A stretch of DNA of 48,344 bases from a virus. Location: the IMG/VR virus record IMGVR_UViG_3300046781_000048; one strand, written 5' to 3'. The translations under genes and the position numbers were made by a program. Below, piece after piece: positions 3,778 through 48,344 of the stretch (the stretch's first letter is position 1; every line of letters begins with the position of its first letter). The notes beneath the pieces are model-generated. The model did not search any database. It saw only the letters and a list, made by a program, of their open reading frames with translations, and was not told the origin of the DNA.

Positions 3778-4412
3778 AGCTCTGCCCGCATTGCAGTCAG
3801 GTCTACGACCGTCCCGAAGATGACGCGACAGACGCTGCGCATCCTGCATGGTGGCGCGGTCATGATCATGGATCGCTGAAGGTCGCAGAGCTTCTCTTTC
3901 GCGTCTGCCTCGAAGGCGCGACGGTCGGAGCGCACTACGCTGCGCCTGTCGCGCAGGTCGTTCTAGCAATCGAAGCGCTGCGATCGCTGACGCGCGCGCA
4001 TGACACTGCCCTGCGCGAATGGCAGGATGAAGCAGCGGAGCAGCTCGGGCGAGTGATCGAACTAGAGAAGCTAATCGACGAAGTCGATGGCGCCCCCCTA
4101 GAGCTAACAGTCGACCAGCTAGCGCGCATTGCAGCCCGCATGGAAAGTATCTGCAGCGCGCGCCTTCGGGCGATGGGTCGCGCGCATGGGCTGCAGAGCA
4201 GGAGCGCTCGACCCGTGGCTAAGGTTTGGTTCAGTCACTCGATATGCCGCGCATGCTGGGACAAGCGCAACCCTAACCGCGAACCTGCGCGTGTGATCGG
4301 GCAGCCGATCAATCGATGCTGCTTCTGCGGAGGCTATGCGATCGACGGGATTTTCGTTCGCGAACATGTCGACGCAGCGCCGTTCTGCGAGTGTCCAGAG
4401 CAGCAGAGATGA
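3774..4412 (+). CDS. Hypothetical protein with N- and C-terminal Cys clusters (212 aa)
   Basis: CPHCS at the N-terminus. SHSICRACW ... CCFCGG ... CEC at the C-terminus, with a helical middle. Confidence 0.55.
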   Translation: MKLCPHCSQVYDRPEDDATDAAHPAWWRGHDHGSLKVAELLFRVCLEGATVGAHYAAPVAQVVLAIEALRSLTRAHDTALREWQDEAAEQLGRVIELEKLIDEVDGAPLELTVDQLARIAARMESICSARLRAMGRAHGLQSRSARPVAKVWFSHSICRACWDKRNPNREPARVIGQPINRCCFCGGYAIDGIFVREHVDAAPFCECPEQQR

Positions 4413-4550
4413 CGTCGCGCGCTGCGAAAAAAGACCGGGGATTTTCGTTCGCAAAATGATGTTGGCATGCTCCGTGCCGAGTAGAATATAACATTGCCCC
4501 CCGAGAAAAACCGCCTAAAGGCTGCGCGTCGACAGCCGTACATAAAGGGC

Positions 4551-4796
4551 ATGACCAGCCAAGCCAAGCGATTCGAAACCCGGGGCGTTCTCGCTGGCGC
4601 GTATGCCGAAAAAAACCCGAAGTCGTTCCTAACGCACGCTGTCCAGGTTGACGCTAGCGGGTCCGACGTCGCGGTGCTCTGCAGCCGGGTCGACCTAGAT
4701 AATCTGGTCGACTCCTACGGGATGAGCGCGACGGAAAGCGCAGCCGTCCCGACCTGTAAAATGTGCGCTGCGCGCCTGGCGAAAATCGCGCAGTAA
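4551..4796 (+). CDS. Hypothetical protein (81 aa)
   Basis: The ATG at 4551 follows AAAGGG. The listed ORF begins at 4494. C-terminal CKMC pair. Confidence 0.45.
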   Translation: MTSQAKRFETRGVLAGAYAEKNPKSFLTHAVQVDASGSDVAVLCSRVDLDNLVDSYGMSATESAAVPTCKMCAARLAKIAQ

Positions 4797-4882
4797 AAAA
4801 GGGGGAGGCGCAGCGCGCGCGCCATTCCGCGCGGCATGGTCTATGCCAACATCAATCGCGCGACGAAAAAAATCCGACGATT

Positions 4883-5350
4883 TTAGATAACGCCGTAGGC
4901 GCCGATCAAATCGACGAAGATCGCTGCGCGCGCCTTGACCCGATGGTCATCGATTGGCGCTCCTACGAAGCGAGCGAAGACCCGTTCCATCTGCCCCCCT
5001 ACGCGCAGGCGCAGTAGGCCGATCGTTCGCGCTGCGAGCTGCGTCGATAGCCGGTTATTGCGGCAGACTTCGAACCGGCTATGCCCGTCCAGCCAATGTG
5101 CGTGCAGCTGATAGAGCCCGAAGGCTTTACCTGCGTCGCATTCCCAGCGCTCGCACTGGCAGCGCTCGATCTTCGCTCTGAAGTGCGATTCGATCGCAGC
5201 CGTAGCGACGAGAGCTAGCCCGGTTTCGATGTCGTCTGCAGCGTAGGCGATGTCGTCTGCGTAGCGCGCGTATCGATCGCGAGCAGCATCGTCCGGGGCA
5301 GGGGGCGCGACGCTGACGATGGCTGCGAGAACGACTGCGACGGGTATCAT
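4883..5350 (-). CDS. Endolysin, lytic transglycosylase (SLT-like) with a hydrophobic N-terminus
   Basis: AAIESHF (catalytic Glu-Ser) and GLYQL motifs resemble the SLT family. N-terminal MIPVAVVLAAIVSVA could be a signal or SAR anchor. Last gene of the late operon. Confidence 0.65.
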   Translation of the reverse strand: MIPVAVVLAAIVSVAPPAPDDAARDRYARYADDIAYAADDIETGLALVATAAIESHFRAKIERCQCERWECDAGKAFGLYQLHAHWLDGHSRFEVCRNNRLSTQLAARTIGLLRLRVGGQMERVFARFVGAPIDDHRVKARAAIFVDLIGAYGVI

Positions 5351-5517
5351 TGCTCGCCCCCAGCGTCCCGTAAAAGCTTCGGGTCGACTACGATCGTTGT
5401 CGCTTCGCGCGGCGCAATGACGACGGTCGGGGGGCAGAATTCAGCGCCCAATTTGAAGCAGCCGATCGCTACGACTGCGACCGCTGCAGCGACCATGACC
5501 AGCATATGGATCTGCAT
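5347..5517 (-). CDS. Unlisted 56-aa membrane/lipobox-like protein (holin or spanin candidate)
   Basis: My own translation is MQIHMLVMVAAAVAVVAIGCFKLGAEFCPP.... GGGGGG SD lies upstream. The stop forms an ATGA overlap with the endolysin start. Confidence 0.4.
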   Translation of the reverse strand: MQIHMLVMVAAAVAVVAIGCFKLGAEFCPPTVVIAPREATTIVVDPKLLRDAGGEQ

Positions 5518-5530
5518 TTGCGCCCCCCAT

Positions 5531-5863
5531 TCATGGTTCAGGGGGCGGAGGATTGATCAGCAAATAGATCGCATCCATCATAGCGCTCTGCGCTTGCCCC
5601 TTCGCAGCCTGCGCCGCGGATGCAGTTTCCTGCTTCCCCTTCGACACTTGCCCAGAGTCGACGACAGCCTGCAGAAGCGGAGTCAGCTTCGCAGTGTCCG
5701 TCTCTCCATCGTTGACAACTGCTTCCCAGGCTTGGTTTGCTTCGAATGCGCGCGCGCTCGCTGTCGTAGCGAGCGCGTACGCTTCATCGCTCGCTGCTTT
5801 GCTCTGCTGGTAGGCTGTAGTCTTCGCTAAAACGTCGTCGATTTCCGGCTGCGTAAGAGGCAT
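5531..5863 (-). CDS. Hypothetical Ala-rich protein (110 aa) between the fibre genes and the lysis genes
   Basis: ORF in operon order. No TM segment and no recognisable motif. Confidence 0.5.
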   Translation of the reverse strand: MPLTQPEIDDVLAKTTAYQQSKAASDEAYALATTASARAFEANQAWEAVVNDGETDTAKLTPLLQAVVDSGQVSKGKQETASAAQAAKGQAQSAMMDAIYLLINPPPPEP

Positions 5864-5882
5864 TGCGATTACTCCACCTTTC

Positions 5883-6626
5883 TTAGGCTATGGCGATCCC
5901 ATGCCAAGCCTTCATGTAGCGGCGGATCCTTCCCGCTGCAGTTTTGGATAGCGCGTTACCGTAAAATGCAAGCTCTGCATAGGCTGAATTGCAGTACTGC
6001 ACTCCGCTCCAATCTCCGCCGATTGCAGCCGGATTTGTGCGCAGCGGATAGCCTGTCCCTGTATTGCGATTGACTACGGTTCCATTAACGCCCATGTCGA
6101 CGTCATTGGCAGCGCGATCGATTATCTCGACAATCGCTAGGGTCGTAGGAATAGGAAGACCTGACGAGACCCCGAGATTTATATATGCATGGAATGCATT
6201 GACGGACGCCATGCGCGAGAGATAGCCCTTCTCTCGCGTGACGAAGAATGTGCTTTCTGGCGTCGTATCCGTGATTTTATTTAGCACCCCGAAAAAGGTC
6301 GACGGTCCAGCGGTCGCGCCTCCCACCGTAAGATTCACGAGAAACTGTAGAAGATCGTCGACGCCATCGAACGTCATCGTAGGTCGTCCCCTTGGTCCTC
6401 CGCCTGGCGATTGATAGGTCGGTCGTCTCGTCGTAGTCACTTGCGTATCTGTGTGATTGCTCGACCCGCTCAAATCGTTAAGCGAAGCGACCGCGCCCGA
6501 TACCACGACGGGCGACCTATCGAGGCGCGCCCAAAACCCGGACGGACCGAATGCGAATCGTCTGGGATTCCCTCTCTCGAGATCAGAAATCCCGCAGCCC
6601 CTTCGTCTTCCCGATCGCAGCGGCAT
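5883..6626 (-). CDS. LamG/concanavalin-like jelly-roll protein, tail-fibre associated
   Basis: The DLSGSSNHTDTQ ... RPTY ... TFDGVDDLL pattern is typical of LamG-type domains (by eye). GGAG upstream of the ATG at 6626. Confidence 0.5.
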   Translation of the reverse strand: MPLRSGRRRGCGISDLERGNPRRFAFGPSGFWARLDRSPVVVSGAVASLNDLSGSSNHTDTQVTTTRRPTYQSPGGGPRGRPTMTFDGVDDLLQFLVNLTVGGATAGPSTFFGVLNKITDTTPESTFFVTREKGYLSRMASVNAFHAYINLGVSSGLPIPTTLAIVEIIDRAANDVDMGVNGTVVNRNTGTGYPLRTNPAAIGGDWSGVQYCNSAYAELAFYGNALSKTAAGRIRRYMKAWHGIAIA

Positions 6627-6632
6627 GGTCGA

Positions 6633-8363
6633 TCACTCCGCTATGTAGACGGTCAACGTCCCTGCGACGGGTCCGCCTAGAATATTGATAAATGTAGTAC
6701 CAAACGGCGCGCGCTCGGGCGACTCCGACCCGTCGAACATGGGAGCGCCCTGCAGCGCAGGATTCGATGCAGCGGTCGCAGTTGCAGAGATAGTGATGGA
6801 GGCTGTCCCCCAGTTATAAAGACATTGGGCGCCAGCCTTTACGACCAGCATCTTGCCAGCGTCGATCGCTGTCTTTAGCCCGGTATACAATGGGCCGGTC
6901 AAGTCGACGTTCGCAGCCGTGCCCGCAGTAAATGCAAAGCCGAAAATCTTCGACGCGCTAGCCGTTGCTGAGCCTGGCCCTGGTCCCATTGTTACCCCCT
7001 GCTGGTCTGAGAACGAACGCGCAAGCCATGTCGTACTGATGGCCGTTACGACTACGCAGGCATTTGCGTACGGTACGACGTAGTCTGCTGCTGCGCCATT
7101 GATCTGATTTGCGCCTGCGCGCTTGATCGTTACTGGGAAAGCGCCGACGATCATAAAGACGAACGTCCGACCCGTAAAGAGCGCAGGCAGCGTGATGTTA
7201 CGCGCCGCTGCCGTAGCGTTGACATGGATGACGGTCTCTTTCGTCGAGACGTCGAGCGTCGCATCTGCTGAGAGGCTGCGCGTATCGTAGACCGTTCCGC
7301 CGCGCAGCTTGCTGACTGATGCTGTATTGCCCAGCTCTAGAGCGTCCTTATGCGCCAGCAGCGCATTGATTCCGCCGTGCGTAACTACCAGCGCTTCCCC
7401 GAAACCGACGGCGATCTTTGCGCCAACACTCGACCCCGGGCCCGCAAAATTCAGCTCGGCCGCGAGCACCTGACATGACGTAGCGGGGGTCGTATCGCCT
7501 GATATTTTTTCGACCCGGTTCGCGGCAGCGGCCCCTCTTGCGTCTCCGTTCAGAGTCGTCAGCACTGTAGCGTCGGAGAACGATCGCGCGTACCAGCCCC
7601 CAGCGATGCCGGTAACGACCGTGCAAGCCCCCGCATAGGGAACGACATAGTTTGCGCCGGCTACTCCGTTCATCGAATCGAGCGCGAACGGTTCGATAAC
7701 ATCGCCCTCAGCGAGCGATTCGATGATGCCGGTACTAGGCTTGATCGTTACGGTAAAGGCGCCCGTCGTTACGAAGACGAACGTACGGCCAACAATCATC
7801 GCGGGCAGGGTAACGTTTCGACTGCCTGCAGTAGCGTCGACATAGACGAGCATATCTTTCGTCGTAACGTCGAGCGTCGTATCAAGCGTCGAAATGGCGC
7901 GCGTTGTAAATCGCACGCCGCCTTCTAGCAGATTGACCGCGGTCGTATTGCCTAGCGTAGGGCGCGACCAGGAAGCGAGAAGCGCTCGCTTATTCATATG
8001 CAGAATCTCTAGACAATCATTTTCGGCAATATTTCTTTGCAGGTGCGCCGTTATTACTGGGGGGCTTTCCTTATTCCAAAAGCGGAACGTATCCGCTAGC
8101 ACGCTGACTAGCCCAGGGCCCTTTCCCCCAGTGATGAACTCGATATTGTTAGCCGCGGTCGACCCGCGAACGTCGCCAGACATCGGAAGGCCTTCCGCGT
8201 TAATCGAGATCGAAACCTTGCCCTCCGTTGGATTGTCGACGACATCGAAATCGGCGCTTAGTGCCCAGATGGGACGCGGGGGTATTGTCGTTCCGTCCCA
8301 TTCGATAGTAGCCCCTCCGCCTTGCGCTGCTGCGTTGACGAGACCGTCTAGCCAGTGTCCCAT
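6633..8363 (-). CDS. Tail fibre protein with an internally duplicated ~190-aa module
   Basis: 576 aa, Gly/Ala/Thr/Val-rich, downstream of the baseplate genes. Two copies of a module each end in ARSFSD. Confidence 0.65.
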   Translation of the reverse strand: MGHWLDGLVNAAAQGGGATIEWDGTTIPPRPIWALSADFDVVDNPTEGKVSISINAEGLPMSGDVRGSTAANNIEFITGGKGPGLVSVLADTFRFWNKESPPVITAHLQRNIAENDCLEILHMNKRALLASWSRPTLGNTTAVNLLEGGVRFTTRAISTLDTTLDVTTKDMLVYVDATAGSRNVTLPAMIVGRTFVFVTTGAFTVTIKPSTGIIESLAEGDVIEPFALDSMNGVAGANYVVPYAGACTVVTGIAGGWYARSFSDATVLTTLNGDARGAAAANRVEKISGDTTPATSCQVLAAELNFAGPGSSVGAKIAVGFGEALVVTHGGINALLAHKDALELGNTASVSKLRGGTVYDTRSLSADATLDVSTKETVIHVNATAAARNITLPALFTGRTFVFMIVGAFPVTIKRAGANQINGAAADYVVPYANACVVVTAISTTWLARSFSDQQGVTMGPGPGSATASASKIFGFAFTAGTAANVDLTGPLYTGLKTAIDAGKMLVVKAGAQCLYNWGTASITISATATAASNPALQGAPMFDGSESPERAPFGTTFINILGGPVAGTLTVYIAE

Positions 8364-20763: not shown

Positions 20764-21213
20764 TCAGATCGTGCGAACGCCAGCCGGGTCGATGAAGACG
20801 CGGACCTTCCCATCAGGCTCGAACCCCATGAAGAAACCGACTGCTTTCCGGGCGCCAGTCGATGAGGTTTTCGCGACCGTATGATCGTCGGTTCCGTAGA
20901 CGGGAATCCCGATCAAATCGATATCGCTGAACGCATCCGCTGCGAGACCATTCGCGAAAGCGAAGCAGCGCTTCGTCTCGACTCTGACCCGCTTGTCTCC
21001 GTCAGCGCCTAGCAAATTGTCCTGCGAATGCTGCGCGACTCCGACCGCTACATCACTGCCAGCCGTCGAGTAGGGAACGACCATCCCTGTCGCGGTCAAC
21101 TGGGCGACGATCGTCCCTTCCCAAATCGCAGTACCTCCGTCGACGGGAAGATCGAAAATGTAGCCTTCATGGCCAATCGGATAAGTCGTCAGCGGATTGT
21201 TTACGTTCGCCAT
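20764..21213 (-). CDS. Head decoration / DUF2190-like protein (putative)
   Basis: 149 aa Gly/Val-rich beta-type protein between the scaffold/protease and the capsid. Confidence 0.45.
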   Translation of the reverse strand: MANVNNPLTTYPIGHEGYIFDLPVDGGTAIWEGTIVAQLTATGMVVPYSTAGSDVAVGVAQHSQDNLLGADGDKRVRVETKRCFAFANGLAADAFSDIDLIGIPVYGTDDHTVAKTSSTGARKAVGFFMGFEPDGKVRVFIDPAGVRTI

Positions 21214-21224
21214 GGGTCCCCCGG

Positions 21225-22454
21225 TTACGCTGCGCCATTCGCGCGCATGCGGATCAATTTGTTCGCGGCGTAGTCTTCGATCTTGGCGCTCGCATCTCTG
21301 CAGGCGCGAACCTCGCTCGATGAGAGCTGCACTTGATGACCGTCGACGTTGACGACAGCGCCCCCTTTATCCTCTACGATCGGCGCAGGTTTCGGCGCTT
21401 CGGTAGGGCTACCCTTCGCAGCTGCGAGCTTCGCAACGCGCGCGCGCAGCGCATCGATTCCCATCGATGCCCATGGTTCAGCCGGTTTCGTAGAGTCGAG
21501 ATCTGCCCATGCAGTCGCAGGGATTTCGGCCCCGAGCTTGACTAGTTCGCCTACGAGTCGACGACGCTCCGACCCTTCGAGCAGCGCCCGATCCTGCGCA
21601 AGCTTCGCGCGCTCGCCTTCGAGCTGCAGATGCGAAGCGCGCCATGCCTCTACCTCGCGAACGATTTCCCCTACGTCGCGCTTTCCCGAAAGCTTCGTCA
21701 GCGCGCGAACGGCAGAGCGAACCTTCGAGGCTGCGACGACAGGCGGAGCAGCAGCGACAGCGGCTGACTCCATCGCAGGAGGCGCATCGCCTTCGGCCTT
21801 ATCATCGGGCGGAGTACCGTTCGCAGCATCCTGCACTTTCTTGACCATCGCTGCGATCGTTGCGATGACGTCTTCGACGTTGGCATCAGGGCCTAGCCCT
21901 AGAGCTTCTGCGATCGTCGTAAATTGTTCCGGGGTCATAGCCTGATCTCCTGTCCCTTCGATGGCGTTCGCAGCGACAAGCGGCGCTAGCCGATCGGTCG
22001 CTGGTAGTGCAGTGATCGCGATATTGAGAAGGCTCGTTACTCGCTTCGTCTCGCTGTCGAATTCGAACGCAGGCGAAATGTAGCGTTGCCTTTTTTCGCG
22101 CAGGCGCGCCTCTCCGTCAGGCGTCCACTTGACCTGCACGGCCCATAGCTCTCCATTGCGGATCGCGAGCCTTCCCCAGCCCCTTGCATCGGGGTCAAAG
22201 TTACGACTCTCGACCGTGCTCTCTAGCGAGAGATGCTCTAGGTCGATCATCAGATCGGCCCCATGGCGCTCGAAGGCAGCCATAACGGCGCGCGCTGCGA
22301 CGTCGTCAAAAAGGAAAACCCCTTTTGACGACTCGTTTTCGCCAGCCCGAAAGATGCGAAATTCGCTAGGGGGGCTGTCTCCGTCGAAGGCAATGGCGAG
22401 CGTCATCACATGATGCGAACGCTCTGCCCTCCGCTGCTTAGCCCCCCTTGCCAT
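21225..22454 (-). CDS. Head protease/scaffold (Mu gpI-like)
   Basis: FRIFRAGENES.KGVFLFDD ... DLMIDLEH resembles the Mu-like prophage I protein family (by eye), with an Ala/Glu-rich helical C-terminal half. The start is uncertain (22454 or 22406). Confidence 0.6.
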   Translation of the reverse strand: MARGAKQRRAERSHHVMTLAIAFDGDSPPSEFRIFRAGENESSKGVFLFDDVAARAVMAAFERHGADLMIDLEHLSLESTVESRNFDPDARGWGRLAIRNGELWAVQVKWTPDGEARLREKRQRYISPAFEFDSETKRVTSLLNIAITALPATDRLAPLVAANAIEGTGDQAMTPEQFTTIAEALGLGPDANVEDVIATIAAMVKKVQDAANGTPPDDKAEGDAPPAMESAAVAAAPPVVAASKVRSAVRALTKLSGKRDVGEIVREVEAWRASHLQLEGERAKLAQDRALLEGSERRRLVGELVKLGAEIPATAWADLDSTKPAEPWASMGIDALRARVAKLAAAKGSPTEAPKPAPIVEDKGGAVVNVDGHQVQLSSSEVRACRDASAKIEDYAANKLIRMRANGAA

Positions 22455-22508
22455 TACGACGAAACTGGCGCATTCAATGGATCATTAGCAATAGGTTTAT
22501 TCTAGACA

Positions 22509-22520
22509 GTGGTCAGCTGA
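22509..22520 (+). promoter_or_regulatory. GTGGTCAGCTGA, degenerate copy of the intergenic motif, abutting GATTACGCGCA
   Basis: 10/12 match to GTAGTCAGCTGG. Lies in the divergent region between the protease/scaffold and portal genes. Confidence 0.35.
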
Positions 22521-22545
22521 TTACGCGCAACCGTAGGGGGGACCG

Positions 22546-24132
22546 ATGGGCGCACCTTCAAAAAGAGCAAAGAAGATCCGATCGGCTAGCGAATTTGACC
22601 TAGTCGCATTGTCGTCAGAAATACGTCCACCTAAGGCGACCACTGGTCTCTACAGTTGGGATCTCGATGCGATTCGCGCAGCGCGCGATGCGCAGATGAT
22701 GGGAAGGTTTTTCCTGCCTGCGCGACTCGCAGAGGCGACGAGAACGGACTATGCGATCTTCGCATCGTTCCTAAATCGTCTCGCCCCTCAGCGCGGGCTA
22801 CCCGTTACGCTTGTCCCTCCGATCGACAGCGCGCGCGCGCTGCGCGTGCTCGCTGAAGCTACCGCGCTATTCGGGCAGCGCGGCGTAGGGATCCATCCTG
22901 ATACCCTCGCAGATATCGATGGGACGATGGCTAACCATGGGGTCGCCTTCGGTATCAACGTGATGACGACTCGGGACGATGGGTCTCGCATCGATGTCGA
23001 GCACAAAAGCTGGCCTATCGAATTCGTTCGCTGGGATCCGACGGAGCGCGCCTTTAAGACCCAGGTCGAAGGCTGCCCCGAAGAATGCATCATCCATGGC
23101 GACGGACGATGGACGATCTACCAGCAGCACGAATGGGAGCCTTGGAAGCATGGCGCGATTTTGGCGATCGCGATCCTATGGGCCGATCATGCCTTCGGGG
23201 TTCGCGACCGAGCGAAGGCGTCTACGTCGCATGGTAATGCGAAGGTCGTAGGAACGATGCCCGAAGGGGTCGCGCTGCAGACGGAGCTAGGCGCGCTGAC
23301 GGCAGAGGCAGCGGGATTCATGGAACTGCTTCGCAGCGTTGCGAGCGTAGAGGCGCCTGTAGGGGTGAAACCATTCGGATCGACGCTCGACTACATAACG
23401 AACAATTCGACCGCATGGCAGATCTTCAAAGAGATCATCGATAGCGGGGACCGCGCAGCCGATCGCGTTTACCTGGGTCATGACGTCAGCGCGACTGCAG
23501 CAGGGGGCGACGCGGTCGGTTACCTCTTTGGCGTTCGTAACGATATCGTCGAAGGGTCGCTGCGCGCCATCGAGCGGGGGATCCGTACCGGGGTTATCGA
23601 GCCATGGTGCGCCCTCAATTTCGGAGACTCTACCCTAGTCCCCGATCGCCTTTACCTGATGCCCGATGCAGACGAAGATGCGCGGCGTAAGTCTCTCGCA
23701 GATCGAACAAAGGCGTTCTACGACGCCATCGAGGCAGCGAAGAAAAACAGTTTCGAAATCACTCCGCTCTACCTCGAAGCGATCGCGAATGACTTCGGGG
23801 TCAAGGTTCCGACGCTGCCCGCTGAGACGAGTAGGGCGCCTACGATCACGCTTGCGCCTACGGACATAGCGAAGGTCGTCAGGGTCAACGAAGCGCGCGC
23901 TAGCGCTGGCCTAGGCCCGCTGCTGCTGATCTCTGGCGCTGCTGACCCCGATGGGAACCTAACCGTTTCTGCGTTCGCTGCGAAGCAGGATGCAGCGGCG
24001 CAAGCGCCTGCGCCGCCTATAGGCGGGTCCCCCATGCCGAACGGGGTAGCGCCCCCTGCAGTCCCGCTGCCTGCTGGGTCGACCCCTGCGCAGGCGAACG
24101 GAGCTGCGAAGCAGCCGCTGCCAGTCCAGTGA
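22546..24132 (+). CDS. Portal protein (DUF935 / Mu gp29-like), on the opposite strand to the rest of the morphogenesis genes
   Basis: 528 aa with GGGGGG SD. The YSWDLDAIRAARDAQMMGRF region resembles Mu-type portals by eye. Pro/Ala-rich C-terminal tail. Confidence 0.7.
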   Translation: MGAPSKRAKKIRSASEFDLVALSSEIRPPKATTGLYSWDLDAIRAARDAQMMGRFFLPARLAEATRTDYAIFASFLNRLAPQRGLPVTLVPPIDSARALRVLAEATALFGQRGVGIHPDTLADIDGTMANHGVAFGINVMTTRDDGSRIDVEHKSWPIEFVRWDPTERAFKTQVEGCPEECIIHGDGRWTIYQQHEWEPWKHGAILAIAILWADHAFGVRDRAKASTSHGNAKVVGTMPEGVALQTELGALTAEAAGFMELLRSVASVEAPVGVKPFGSTLDYITNNSTAWQIFKEIIDSGDRAADRVYLGHDVSATAAGGDAVGYLFGVRNDIVEGSLRAIERGIRTGVIEPWCALNFGDSTLVPDRLYLMPDADEDARRKSLADRTKAFYDAIEAAKKNSFEITPLYLEAIANDFGVKVPTLPAETSRAPTITLAPTDIAKVVRVNEARASAGLGPLLLISGAADPDGNLTVSAFAAKQDAAAQAPAPPIGGSPMPNGVAPPAVPLPAGSTPAQANGAAKQPLPVQ

Positions 24133-25594
24133 ACCCTGCGCGGTAATCCGTTTTCTCTTTCTCGCCCAGCCCTGCGAGATGCCAGACCAGCCAGACGAGA
24201 GCATCGAGCCTGTTCGGGCTGACTCCGCCTACGCGCGGATTCCATTCGGTTAGCTCCTGCTCTAGCTCGGGCATCCGTCCGACGATATGGATCATGCCCC
24301 GATCGGATAGCGCGCTGACTGGCTCTGCTCGAATGGTCTTTCCCCGGGTCGCGAGAACTTCGACGATGCGCAGCGCCTTCGCTGCGACTTCGCCTGACTT
24401 TCGTTCTTTCGCTGCTCGAACGTTCGCAGCGACTAAGTCGCCCCCTCGATTGCGCTCGCCTACGACCGTATCGCTCTGCCATTGCGTGCAGGCTGCTACG
24501 ACGTCCGCTCCCCACTTCTCGGGTTTCGATCGGCTGCTGACGTCAGCCAAAATATAAATATGCCCTGCTGCATCTCTGCCCCCTGCGATGATCCCTGTCT
24601 CGTCATTTTCTGGATTCGTCGCGATCGCAGGATCGACCGCGACTGCGACAGCGTCGAGCGATGGGCAAGTCTCGACCCGAGTCGCATCGAGGATCGAAGC
24701 TTGAAAGAGAGCGTCTGGGTTATCGGTCAAGATCTCCCCATCCATCTCTTGACGTCCCAGCCTGGTCCCTCCGTACTTTCGTCGCATGCGAGCGAGGTAA
24801 CCGGGGTCGAGGTTCGACGCGTTCTCCCCTTGCGCCATCAGCACCGTTACGGTTTCTTCGTCCGCTATCAGCTCTCGGAATAGCTGCAGAGGTAGAGGGG
24901 TCCCCGAGACGATGATCTCTAGCGGGACATCGCCCTTAAGGCGCGTTGCGAATTCGATGTTACTCCAAATCGTATTGAGGTAGCGCCACTTCGCAGGCTC
25001 ATCGCACCATACTGAATCGAGGTTAGGCCCCCTGAATTCTGGATCCTCTGCGCTATTGATATACGCAATCGCTCCGCCGCATCGCTCGGGACTGCCGCAA
25101 CCCTGGCAGCCCGGACGATGGAAAAAGACAAGCGCCTTATGCGGTTTATATTCCGGGCGCAGCAGGGGAGGGAAGACGGTTAGGATCCCATCGCTGCCGC
25201 CTTCGCCCTTGATTTGGTAGCGCTCGATTTCGCGCAGCGTCGGACCTACGATCGCGATGCTGCGCGCTCCCTGCTCGACTCGTCTGCGAATGCGATTCGC
25301 CGCTGCGATGGTCTTTCCGCTGCCCCTTCCCCCGAGCAGAAAGAAAACGCGATGGGGGATATCGTCGAGATCTGGATCCTGCTTCGGTCGCGCCCAGGTT
25401 TGCCAGTCGTAGCGCAGGCGAGCGAGATCCATCGTAGAGAACTGCTGCAGGATTTCGAGGCGCAGCGAACCGGGGAGGCGACCGAAGCGCTCCGCTAAGC
25501 TCGGGCCTTCGAGCGTTCGAGAGAATGCGCGCGCGCCTTCGATGGCCGTCTGATAGCGCTTCTCGAAATCAGGATCATGATGCGTCGTTAGCAA
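24017..25594 (-). CDS. terL: Terminase large subunit
   Basis: Walker A LLGGRGSGKT, Walker B-like SVWCDE, C-terminal nuclease-type RLDALVW. TTG start preceded by AAGGGGG. Confidence 0.85.
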   Translation of the reverse strand: MLTTHHDPDFEKRYQTAIEGARAFSRTLEGPSLAERFGRLPGSLRLEILQQFSTMDLARLRYDWQTWARPKQDPDLDDIPHRVFFLLGGRGSGKTIAAANRIRRRVEQGARSIAIVGPTLREIERYQIKGEGGSDGILTVFPPLLRPEYKPHKALVFFHRPGCQGCGSPERCGGAIAYINSAEDPEFRGPNLDSVWCDEPAKWRYLNTIWSNIEFATRLKGDVPLEIIVSGTPLPLQLFRELIADEETVTVLMAQGENASNLDPGYLARMRRKYGGTRLGRQEMDGEILTDNPDALFQASILDATRVETCPSLDAVAVAVDPAIATNPENDETGIIAGGRDAAGHIYILADVSSRSKPEKWGADVVAACTQWQSDTVVGERNRGGDLVAANVRAAKERKSGEVAAKALRIVEVLATRGKTIRAEPVSALSDRGMIHIVGRMPELEQELTEWNPRVGGVSPNRLDALVWLVWHLAGLGEKEKTDYRAGFTGLAAAASQLRSPAQGSTQQAAGLQGALPRSAWGTRL

Positions 25595-25603
25595 GTGGCC
25601 CCC

Positions 25604-25840
25604 TTACTTCCCTAGCGCTGCCTCTGCGTTGCGCGCGCGCGTAGTCCATACGTCGCGCTCTGCCTCTGCGCGCATGCGTTCGCGCTGCTCTGAATCTGCG
25701 AGCGACGCAGCGACCCGGTAGGCAGCAACCCACCGATCGCGATCTTCCGTCATCTGCGTAAGTCTAACGACCAGGCGCGCAGTCTCGCGCTCTAGGTCGT
25801 CTCTCAGCATCAAGAGTCGACGCAGCTCCGCTTCTTCCAT
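25604..25840 (-). CDS. Small Arg/Glu-rich coiled-coil protein (78 aa)
   Basis: ORF immediately upstream of terL. No recognisable motif. Confidence 0.5.
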   Translation of the reverse strand: MEEAELRRLLMLRDDLERETARLVVRLTQMTEDRDRWVAAYRVAASLADSEQRERMRAEAERDVWTTRARNAEAALGK

Positions 25841-25889
25841 TTCCTCCCCCTTGTGTTAGTGTCTCTCTACTCGGTCTGGTCCCCTGACT

Positions 25890-25930
25890 CCCTGCAGCGC
25901 TGGCGCCTTGTAAACGCCAGCGCTGCAGGG
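25890..25930. repeat. Perfect 16-bp inverted repeat CCCTGCAGCGCTGGCG / CGCCAGCGCTGCAGGG with a 9-nt loop
   Basis: Read directly. Intergenic, with no U-tract on either side. Confidence 0.9.
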
Positions 25931-25942
25931 GTCGCTCTCTAC

Positions 25943-26011
25943 GGCGGGTAGCGAAGGTCGCAGCTGGGTTTCATACGTCCAGTTTTCCTAGTTCGATTCT
26001 GGGACCCGCCC
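25943..26011 (+). tRNA. tRNA-like element, CAU anticodon (Met/Ile2 type), with a truncated D-arm
   Basis: Perfect 7-bp acceptor stem GGCGGGT/ACCCGCC. Canonical T-arm CCTAG-TTCGATT-CTGGG. Anticodon arm TGGGT-TTCATAC-GTCCA. However the D-arm is only GCGA-AGG-TCGC, the body is 68 nt and no CCA is encoded. Confidence 0.4.
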
Positions 26012-26097
26012 CCCTTCTGTCGATGGTAGAGAGCAGCTCCGCTATCTCTTGATGCAGCTTGCGCCTGCGCCTTCTGATGCGCTGATGCCTTCGTCTT

Positions 26098-26283
26098 CTA
26101 GGGTTCATCGTCCCAGGGATCCCCCATTCGTCTTTCGCGCGCCTTGCGCTGCTGCCTTCGCTGGTGACAAGCGCGCGCCGTCGACTCGATCGCTGCGATA
26201 AGGAACCATCCGACGAAGGCGCCGATCAAGAGAAAGCCTAGACCGCGCGCTACGCGATTGACGATATCAATTACTTCGAGCAT
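26098..26283 (-). CDS. Small membrane protein (61 aa)
   Basis: The ATG at 26283 is preceded by AAGGGGGAG. One TM helix, GLGFLLIGAFVGWFLIAAI. Confidence 0.5.
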   Translation of the reverse strand: MLEVIDIVNRVARGLGFLLIGAFVGWFLIAAIESTARACHQRRQQRKARERRMGDPWDDEP

Positions 26284-26867
26284 GGCTCCCCCTTCTTCCC
26301 ATAGGGACCCTTGCCACATGCGCCGCATGCGAAGGTCCGCTCTGCTGCTTCGACTAGGCGGAGCAGCTTCGCCCTTACCTCTGCCGCTGCTTCGAGATTT
26401 GTCGGATCTATCTCGGGGTCGATGGGTTCGCGCGGCGTTAGTTCATGGATCCGAGTCGCGATCCGCTCTTCGAGGCTCATCGCCTTAGCGACATGTTCGA
26501 CGGTCGTAGTCCCCTTCTGCACTCTTTCGAAATGCAGCTGCACTAGCTCTCTCGCGATCGACTGCTGCAGGCGCAAAGTCGCCACTGCATCGGGGACTTC
26601 ATCAGCCGAGGGAACTAGGCTAAGCTTAGCGAGCGCGCGCTGCGCCTCCGTCGCTGCAGCAGCAGCTGCATCGGGGAGAATTCGCCTGCGAGACTTGCGC
26701 GCGCCGTTGCCTCCGTTCGGAGTCAGCCCGGCATCATCAAGCCAATTCAAAATCGTATTGTGATTCAGCCCTAGCGCTTCGCCTATCTCGCGAGAGCTAG
26801 CCCCATCGCGATGCATCAGCATCATCTGCTCTAGGCGCGCAGGGTTCTTCAGCGAAGGTTTCGGCAT
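26271..26867 (-). CDS. HTH DNA-binding protein, small terminase subunit candidate
   Basis: N-terminal HTH (SSREIGEALGLNHNTILNWL). First gene after the 360-bp noncoding region and upstream of terL. C-terminal CGACG...C. Confidence 0.5.
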   Translation of the reverse strand: MPKPSLKNPARLEQMMLMHRDGASSREIGEALGLNHNTILNWLDDAGLTPNGGNGARKSRRRILPDAAAAAATEAQRALAKLSLVPSADEVPDAVATLRLQQSIARELVQLHFERVQKGTTTVEHVAKAMSLEERIATRIHELTPREPIDPEIDPTNLEAAAEVRAKLLRLVEAAERTFACGACGKGPYGKKGEPCSK

Positions 26868-48143: not shown

Positions 48144-48344
48144 TCAGCGCTCGGGGAAGCGCGACTCGACTTCGCCCGAGAGAGCTTCAGCGTGCGACGC
48201 TGCGAAGTCCTGCTGCGCAGCAGAGTAGTCTGCGAAGTACTCTGCATCAGTGTCGCCAGGGCGCAGCGTAAGAAAGGTCATGATGGATCGCACTGCGGTA
48301 TCGGAGTCGATCGCGCAGTGAACCCAGACGAAGGCGCCATCGCG
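48144..48344 (-). CDS. 3-prime part of the junction-spanning ORF (same gene as 1..292)
   Basis: TGA is the reverse complement of 48144..48146. The frame is continuous with the ORF starting at 292 once the 127-bp overlap is collapsed. Confidence 0.6.
   Translation of the reverse strand, partial: RDGAFVWVHCAIDSDTAVRSIMTFLTLRPGDTDAEYFADYSAAQQDFAASHAEALSGEVESRFPER
48218..48344. repeat. Terminal overlap, copy 2 (identical to 1..127)
   Basis: Direct comparison. Confidence 0.95.

Follow-up and report, generated by a model that had tools for sequence, protein, structure and literature searches.

A portal gene reversed within the Mu-type head module of an uncultivated phage clade, probably by an old inversion fixed in place

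In phage Mu, the genes for the portal (PF06074), the protease (PF10123), and the gpT capsid protein all lie on one strand, and the colinear order of the Mu-type head module is large terminase (TerL), portal, and protease. Myxococcus phage Mx4 (OK085710) likewise has TerL, portal, and then the downstream genes in a colinear arrangement. Here we describe the head module of an uncultivated phage, IMG/VR virus record IMGVR_UViG_3300046781_000048, from a stretch of 48,344 nucleotides (hereafter, the window) where that order is missing: the portal gene lies on the plus strand, between a protease gene and a TerL gene that are both on the minus strand. The window represents a complete, circularly closed phage genome of about 48.2 kb with a G + C content of 59.7%. 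It has an exact direct terminal repeat of 127 nucleotides (1–127 and 48218–48344), which leaves a unique genome of 48,217 bp. Its genes include those for a large serine integrase, a DnaB helicase, and a DNA methylase, and the head and tail genes form a long block on the minus strand.

At the gene level, the portal and the protease are homologous to those of Mu and both matches exceed the gathering scores, so the Mu-type pair of head genes is present. The gpT-like capsid protein is only weakly related: it scored 19.5 bits against PF10124, for a cut-off of 20.1, and the precomputed matches assigned it to PF25209 (Phage_capsid_4) and the capsid protein of a relative to PF10124. TerL contains the ATPase domain (PF03237, Terminase_6N) and the RNaseH-like nuclease domain (PF17289, Terminase_6C). 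The protease gene opens the head-tail block and is divergent from the portal, whereas the portal and TerL converge and overlap tail to tail (Table 1). The portal is the sole long plus-strand gene inside the head and tail region. Mu differs in that its portal is not inverted and in that it transposes, while the phage in the window integrates through its large serine integrase.

We consider it very probable that this arrangement is an ancient inversion of the portal within a Mu-type head module, which took place on the spot and became fixed, next to a TerL whose C-terminal tail is genuine. The evidence for it comes first from the relatives. Searches with the portal retrieved two contigs from metagenome-assembled genomes (MAGs), 12 IMG/VR contigs, eight further metagenome contigs, one Polyangiaceae MAG, and four other assemblies with an identical portal (SRR26075155, SRR26075294, SRR26075152, and JGI 3300046737). 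Every one of them presented a minus-strand protease, a plus-strand portal, and a minus-strand TerL. The layout is common to about 35 related contigs, with portal identities from 37 to 99%. The portal gene is intact in 19 of the 20 relatives in which this was measured, and its strong Shine-Dalgarno sequence (GGGGGG) and N-terminus (MGAPSKRAKK) are kept among relatives. Related contigs measure 47.7–48.2 kb, which suggests that they are complete genomes too.

Isolated phages are far from this group. A nucleotide search of 21000–26000 against GenBank phages gave no match, and protein searches against isolated phages gave distant relatives only. The closest one by portal is Mx4, with 26% identity over 81% of the query; it shares the Mu-type portal, and its host phylum fits the MAG assignments of some relatives. 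Mx4 differs in its colinear genes and in a TerL that could not be aligned with that of the window; the closest isolated relatives of this TerL are also colinear. The initial annotation, made from the letters of the sequence, had described the portal as reversed within the head-assembly genes and had offered a fixed ancestral inversion as one of two explanations. Both statements stand, since the layout is shared down to about 37% portal identity and outgroups such as Mx4 are colinear. The phages with an inverted portal form a large clade; they are temperate and uncultivated, some of them come from Myxococcota assemblies (Polyangiaceae, Myxococcales), and their hosts are probably Myxococcota.

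A wider search gave 80 graded relatives, in which TerL and the protease were placed by profile searches, and a neighbour-joining tree of the portal was built with bootstraps. All loci with the layout of the window fell in one clade (100/100), and every outgroup with identifiable neighbour genes was colinear. Nested in the inverted-portal clade, four loci (L067, L072, L074, and L075) have the genes in colinear order and closely packed, with stops and starts that overlap or abut. They are sister to L068, which has the layout of the window (100/100), and then to L060 (95/100). When compared to L068 and L060, L067, L072, and L075 presented identities of 55–61% for TerL, 57–66% for the portal, and 42–57% for the protease; their TerL is only about 30% identical to that of the window. 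This nested subclade requires at least two changes of orientation, whatever the root. The parsimonious reading of the tree would be an ancestral inversion of the portal, followed by an in-place re-inversion in the subclade of the four colinear loci.

Two other layouts were found. L069, L076, and L077 have a minus-strand protease with both the portal and TerL on the plus strand, and they cluster (100/100) with L073, which has the layout of the window. In L069 (3575–7774), the portal stop and the TerL start overlap by 4 nucleotides, and the divergent protease and portal starts are 31 nucleotides apart. In L065 (1369–4692) and L071, the portal and the protease are on the same strand, 1.5 kb apart, and no TerL was detectable directly upstream of the portal. 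Thus, the gene orientation inside this head module changed more than once. In this reading, individual packaging genes were toggled repeatedly in place: the portal was inverted a single time, at the base, and later re-inverted, and TerL was flipped in L069, L076, and L077.

The second line of evidence is the C-terminus of TerL. Homologues from isolated phages align only up to TerL residues 468–485, and the closest of them end shortly past the nuclease domain. For this reason, the last 40 residues or so looked like an add-on, and the initial annotation took them for a product of the inversion. Among relatives, the tail of about 43 residues reads D-Y-R-x-G-F-x-G-L ... A-x-L-R ... G-L-x-A-x-L-P-R-x-x-x-G-S/T-K/R-L-COOH, and both its length and its motif are kept in the clade. 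Of the inverted-portal loci examined, all but L073, which lacks the tail, could be aligned over it, and so could the colinear L067, L072, and L075; inverted-portal and colinear loci share the ending G-S/T-K/R-L/I. The tail does not depend on the overlap with the portal: it is present in L012 and L060, where the overlap is only 4 nucleotides, and in the three colinear loci, where there is none and the TerL stop lies about 12 nucleotides before the portal start. Since colinear relatives have it, the tail belongs to this TerL lineage and is not a by-product of the inversion; it either predates the layout or is independent of it. In other terminases, the C-terminal tail docks on the portal (PMC5389665), and by analogy this one probably docks TerL on the portal as well. 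Annotators should not take the TerL C-terminus of these phages for an artefact.

One relative presented a much longer TerL. In L008 (IMGVR_UViG_3300037721_000049, 4044–6362, minus strand), the protein has 772 residues, with an in-frame intein of about 230 residues (PF14890 Intein_splicing and Hint) in the ATPase domain.

The end of the portal gene behaves differently from the TerL tail that lies opposite to it. In 15 loci at 51–99% portal identity, the two genes overlap by 95–119 nucleotides in a constant phase; among more distant loci, the overlap is 57–90 nucleotides in L036 and L002, where the phase differs, and 0–12 nucleotides in L012, L035, L024, L060, and P0095. In the phase of the window, TerL codon position 3 is portal codon position 2. 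Pairwise divergence at TerL codon positions 1, 2, and 3 was 0.39, 0.30, and 0.46 within the overlap, as compared to 0.24, 0.17, and 0.50 in the TerL body, so that position 3 remains the most variable one in the overlap. The ratios of nonsynonymous to synonymous differences (pN/pS, Nei-Gojobori) were 0.30 for the TerL body, 0.64 for the overlap in the TerL frame, and 1.44 for the overlap in the portal frame, values that are only qualitative because synonymous sites are near saturation (pS about 0.5–0.6). The last two values indicate that the TerL frame is constrained and the portal frame is not. The last 37 or so residues of the portal are Pro/Ala-rich and highly variable, and they appear to be an overprinted appendage, free of amino-acid selection.

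This is in line with known overprinted antisense overlaps and convergent 3′ pairs, as two real genes share the region on opposite strands and both reading frames stay open across relatives under asymmetric selection. A constrained frame (here, TerL) opposite a free one (here, the portal tail) is expected where a gene has grown across an older neighbour. The difference is that the extension is just a terminal appendage, with no evident function, on a much older protein. The portal stop mostly lies opposite the conserved TerL codons for G-F-(K/T)-G, where TTCA or TTTA reads as TGAA or TAAA on the other strand, and these codons explain passively why the length of the overlap is nearly constant.

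Other parts of the portal also vary. Near the C-terminus, a block of about 60 residues (TLAPTD..VNEARASAGL..DPDG..; residues ~434–488, 23845–24010) is patchy among relatives: it is present in the window, L004, L005, and L006, partly in L002, L069, and L077, and cleanly absent in L008–L011 and L012. The portal homologues P0089, P0103, P0009, and P0061 are much longer (626–844 residues), and two of them add a collagen repeat (PF01391) to Portal_Mu. In the Myxococcales MAG contig L001 (CAZQJC010000257.1), we set aside a 1074-residue "portal" reading frame with a 271-nucleotide overlap, as the gene has an internal stop; in this portal homologue (6001–7227), the stop could be due to prophage decay, to a sequencing error, or to recoding.

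Among the alternatives, the one that survives best is that the antisense, 3′-overlapping portal is a selected regulatory device, in which convergent transcription or pairing of the mRNA 3′ ends sets the dosage or timing of the portal relative to the terminase and the late genes; read-through from TerL could also give a full antisense RNA over the portal. We regard it as unlikely, even if several observations fit it. The layout is stable over deep divergence, and the long overlap keeps its phase and length in the 15 loci described above. No intrinsic terminator was predicted for TerL ahead of the portal, nor for the portal within TerL, which makes it likely that the transcripts overlap. A virion needs only 12 copies of the portal. 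However, neither the overlap nor the layout is indispensable, as the overlap shrinks to almost nothing in some loci and one subclade went back to colinear. Besides, the overlap showed neither a conserved RNA structure nor a conserved terminator (RNAalifold consensus of −1.3 kcal/mol; single-sequence z-scores of −0.6 and −0.1), and its length has the passive explanation given above, with no antisense stop codons opposite the GC-rich TerL tail. If portal dosage did prove to be governed by the antisense placement, phages would have a simple and new means of adjusting their assembly stoichiometry.

The second explanation offered by the initial annotation was a population-level invertible segment. 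A recombinase would flip 22530..24136 between two short repeats, thereby switching portal expression and the length of TerL and gating virion assembly. Site-specific invertible segments such as Mu G/Gin, P1 C/Cin, Salmonella H/Hin, shufflons, and invertons resemble this locus in the gene-sized inverted segment, the short inverted repeat, and the serine recombinase in the genome. They differ in that the portal segment lacks conserved recombination sites and an adjacent invertase, in that no assembly shows it in a second orientation, and in that it holds one essential structural gene rather than alternative tail-fibre ends or a promoter. We find such a switch highly improbable.

The repeat that suggested it does bracket the portal, with both arms where they had been reported, flanking the sole inverted gene. 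It is imperfect, as the arms of 11 and 12 nucleotides present 11 matches and a 1-nucleotide bulge, with a longest exact run of 6 nucleotides, and they are far shorter than known inversion sites. Among the 133 inverted-repeat pairs in 22000–24700, it is outside the top 25 by length. Of 3000 random pairs of 40-nucleotide windows with equal spacing, 1.1% scored as well; the repeat is thus somewhat unusual for one pre-specified gene, yet it was picked post hoc. Both arms are shared only with L003, an IMG/VR contig that is 99% identical, and the right arm varies among relatives merely as the TerL coding sequence does. At the portal flanks of the 18 other loci with the same layout, 17 had no comparable repeat (best, 0–9 matches) and the remaining one, L073, carries an unrelated 12-mer. 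No matched recombination sites conserved among the relatives that carry the segment were found at the portal flanks. The short repeat around the portal is incidental.

Flipping the segment in silico was also less tidy than had been claimed. The initial annotation described a textbook junction of TerL stop, Shine-Dalgarno sequence, and portal ATG; it does appear, with TerL ending in ...TDYAQP*, but only when the crossover lies within the 6-nucleotide GATTAC core. When just the stretch between the arms is flipped, TerL stays open for 505 residues and does not end in this way. In the flipped state, TerL either stops at residue ~487 or continues into unrelated sequence, and the conserved tail is lost in both cases. 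The proposed breakpoints are therefore wrong, because the flip would remove the conserved 43-residue C-terminus of TerL.

Searches for the second orientation agree with this. Neither of the two predicted flipped junctions had a match in IMG/VR by pattern search, and the native junction matched a near-identical contig there. A metagenome collection had no match to the flipped-junction pattern either, a result of little weight since it yielded no contig of this very phage. No contig among the relatives and the identical-portal assemblies breaks at the proposed inversion sites. A single orientation was seen in the five assemblies of the phage and in its 99% strain, and in the 35 or so related contigs of the subclades with the same layout; assemblies show the majority orientation. 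No dedicated invertase was found next to or within the segment, whose neighbours are the protease and TerL. The phage does code for a serine recombinase, the only recombinase found, but it is a 501-residue large serine integrase located about 16 kb away, and it is unrelated to the portal segment. Thus, a DNA switch that gates assembly is very unlikely at this locus, and the attractive reading is corrected.

Finally, a segment mis-oriented by the assembler at the short repeat is refuted even though the window is a metagenome contig closed via a 127-nucleotide k-mer overlap, since the same orientation recurs in assemblies made independently, with different runs and different pipelines (JGI, Logan, ENA), and in dozens of diverged relatives, both reading frames are intact, and an 11-nucleotide repeat is far under the k of the assembler.

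Returning to the fixed inversion, the protease-portal spacer suggests how the reversed gene may be expressed. It measures 90–99 nucleotides in the core relatives and contains conserved blocks: GCAA, TTT, a palindromic CCAnTGG, TGG..CA, and the portal Shine-Dalgarno sequence. The composite motif in Table 1 occurs once in the window, as compared to 0.08 occurrences expected. The protease ATG has no Shine-Dalgarno sequence upstream, which suggests a short or absent leader on its transcript; a weak −35/−10-like pair (TTGCTA, 17–18 nucleotides, CAGTTT) would set the start at or near this ATG. In Mu, a dedicated late promoter, PI, lies directly upstream of the protease gene I (PMC4461284, PMC2582627); this promoter, at the portal/protease junction, is a precedent for a boundary between transcription units there. 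Unlike Mu, the window had no Mor/C-type late activator in a Pfam scan of ten of its small reading frames. The spacer was also inspected by eye for sigma-70, sigma-54, extended −10, and ECF-type (extracytoplasmic function) promoters, and none fitted convincingly. The pattern TTGCYW-N16-18-CCAAKT does not recur in the window, and ATGCGCCAR recurs only inside coding regions.

The portal gene stands alone and has a ribosome-binding site of its own; we propose that it may be transcribed from a promoter located in the spacer. A second, divergent promoter in the spacer would drive the protease-to-tail operon, from the same position as Mu PI upstream of gene I, and TerS-TerL would form a third transcription unit that converges on the portal. 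The chances for the promoter assignment seem to us evenly balanced. In the subclade of the window, the portal frame has run on into the antisense of the TerL tail, gaining its appendage. The relatives of the re-inverted subclade have small overlaps (4–42 nucleotides). The long overlap in the subclade of the window would now block a simple re-inversion, because even a clean one would be destructive, with any flip truncating the TerL tail.

Some points weigh against this account. The role of the TerL tail is proposed by analogy, and no solved TerL structure was matched by sequence, either with TerL alone or with a 14-sequence profile, in the search made to locate where the nuclease domain ends. 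The trees are neighbour-joining trees of one gene, and the pN/pS values in the overlap are qualitative. As assemblies report the majority orientation, a rare minority orientation may exist in the population. Regarding the spacer, its overall conservation is no higher than that of third codon positions, a consensus scan found no sigma-70-like promoter in it, and the putative promoters are placed by a few short blocks.

The gene arrangement is unusual, not categorically new. Its relevance is that a terminase-portal-protease order that is otherwise very stable is broken by one antisense gene in a sizeable uncultivated clade. Moreover, it gives a clean natural example of the end of one gene overprinted on a conserved terminase tail. 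The coordinates of all these features are collected in Table 1.

Table 1. Coordinates of the portal locus and related features in the window
Feature	Position	Strand	Identification or remark
Protease/scaffold, Mu-type, gpI-like	21225..22454	−	PF10123 Mu-like_Pro, E = 2.9e-30; phrog_328
Divergent protease-portal spacer, 91 nucleotides	22455..22545	both	Presumed site of the portal promoter and the protease-to-tail promoter
Spacer motif GCAA-N5-TTT-N8-10-C(C)AnTGG	22488..22512	+	In 12–14 relatives
Left repeat arm, GATTACGCGCA	22519..22529	+	Incidental; in the unconserved part of the spacer
Portal, Mu-type, 528 residues	22546..24132	+	PF06074 Portal_Mu, E = 1.1e-20, residues 60–395
TerL, large terminase, T4-type, 525 residues	24017..25594	−	PF03237, E = 2.5e-16; PF17289, residues 319–469; PHROG terminase families
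Convergent 3′ overlap of portal and TerL, 116 nucleotides	24017..24132	both	Last ~37 portal residues antisense to the TerL tail
Conserved TerL tail, residues 483–525	24020..24148	−	Alignments with relatives
Right repeat arm, TGCGCGGTAATC	24137..24148	+	Incidental; antisense of TerL codons D483-Y-R-A
Large serine recombinase, 501 residues	40541..42046	+	Resolvase, Recombinase, and Zn_ribbon_recom; likely integrase of a temperate phage

Upstream of TerL, ARAGORN predicted a tRNA-Met (25943..26013, plus strand) antisense to the packaging genes. It had no Rfam tRNA match even at E ≤ 1 and is probably a false positive; if real, it would be a second plus-strand gene in the block. On the minus strand at 25890–25930, a perfect 16-bp GC-rich hairpin (CCCTGCAGCGCTGGCG-TTTACAAG-CGCCAGCGCTGCAGGG), with no T-run, sits between a helix-turn-helix/TerS-like gene (26271..26867) and a 78-residue reading frame ahead of TerL. 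This hairpin could be a pac site, a regulatory site, or another kind of terminator.

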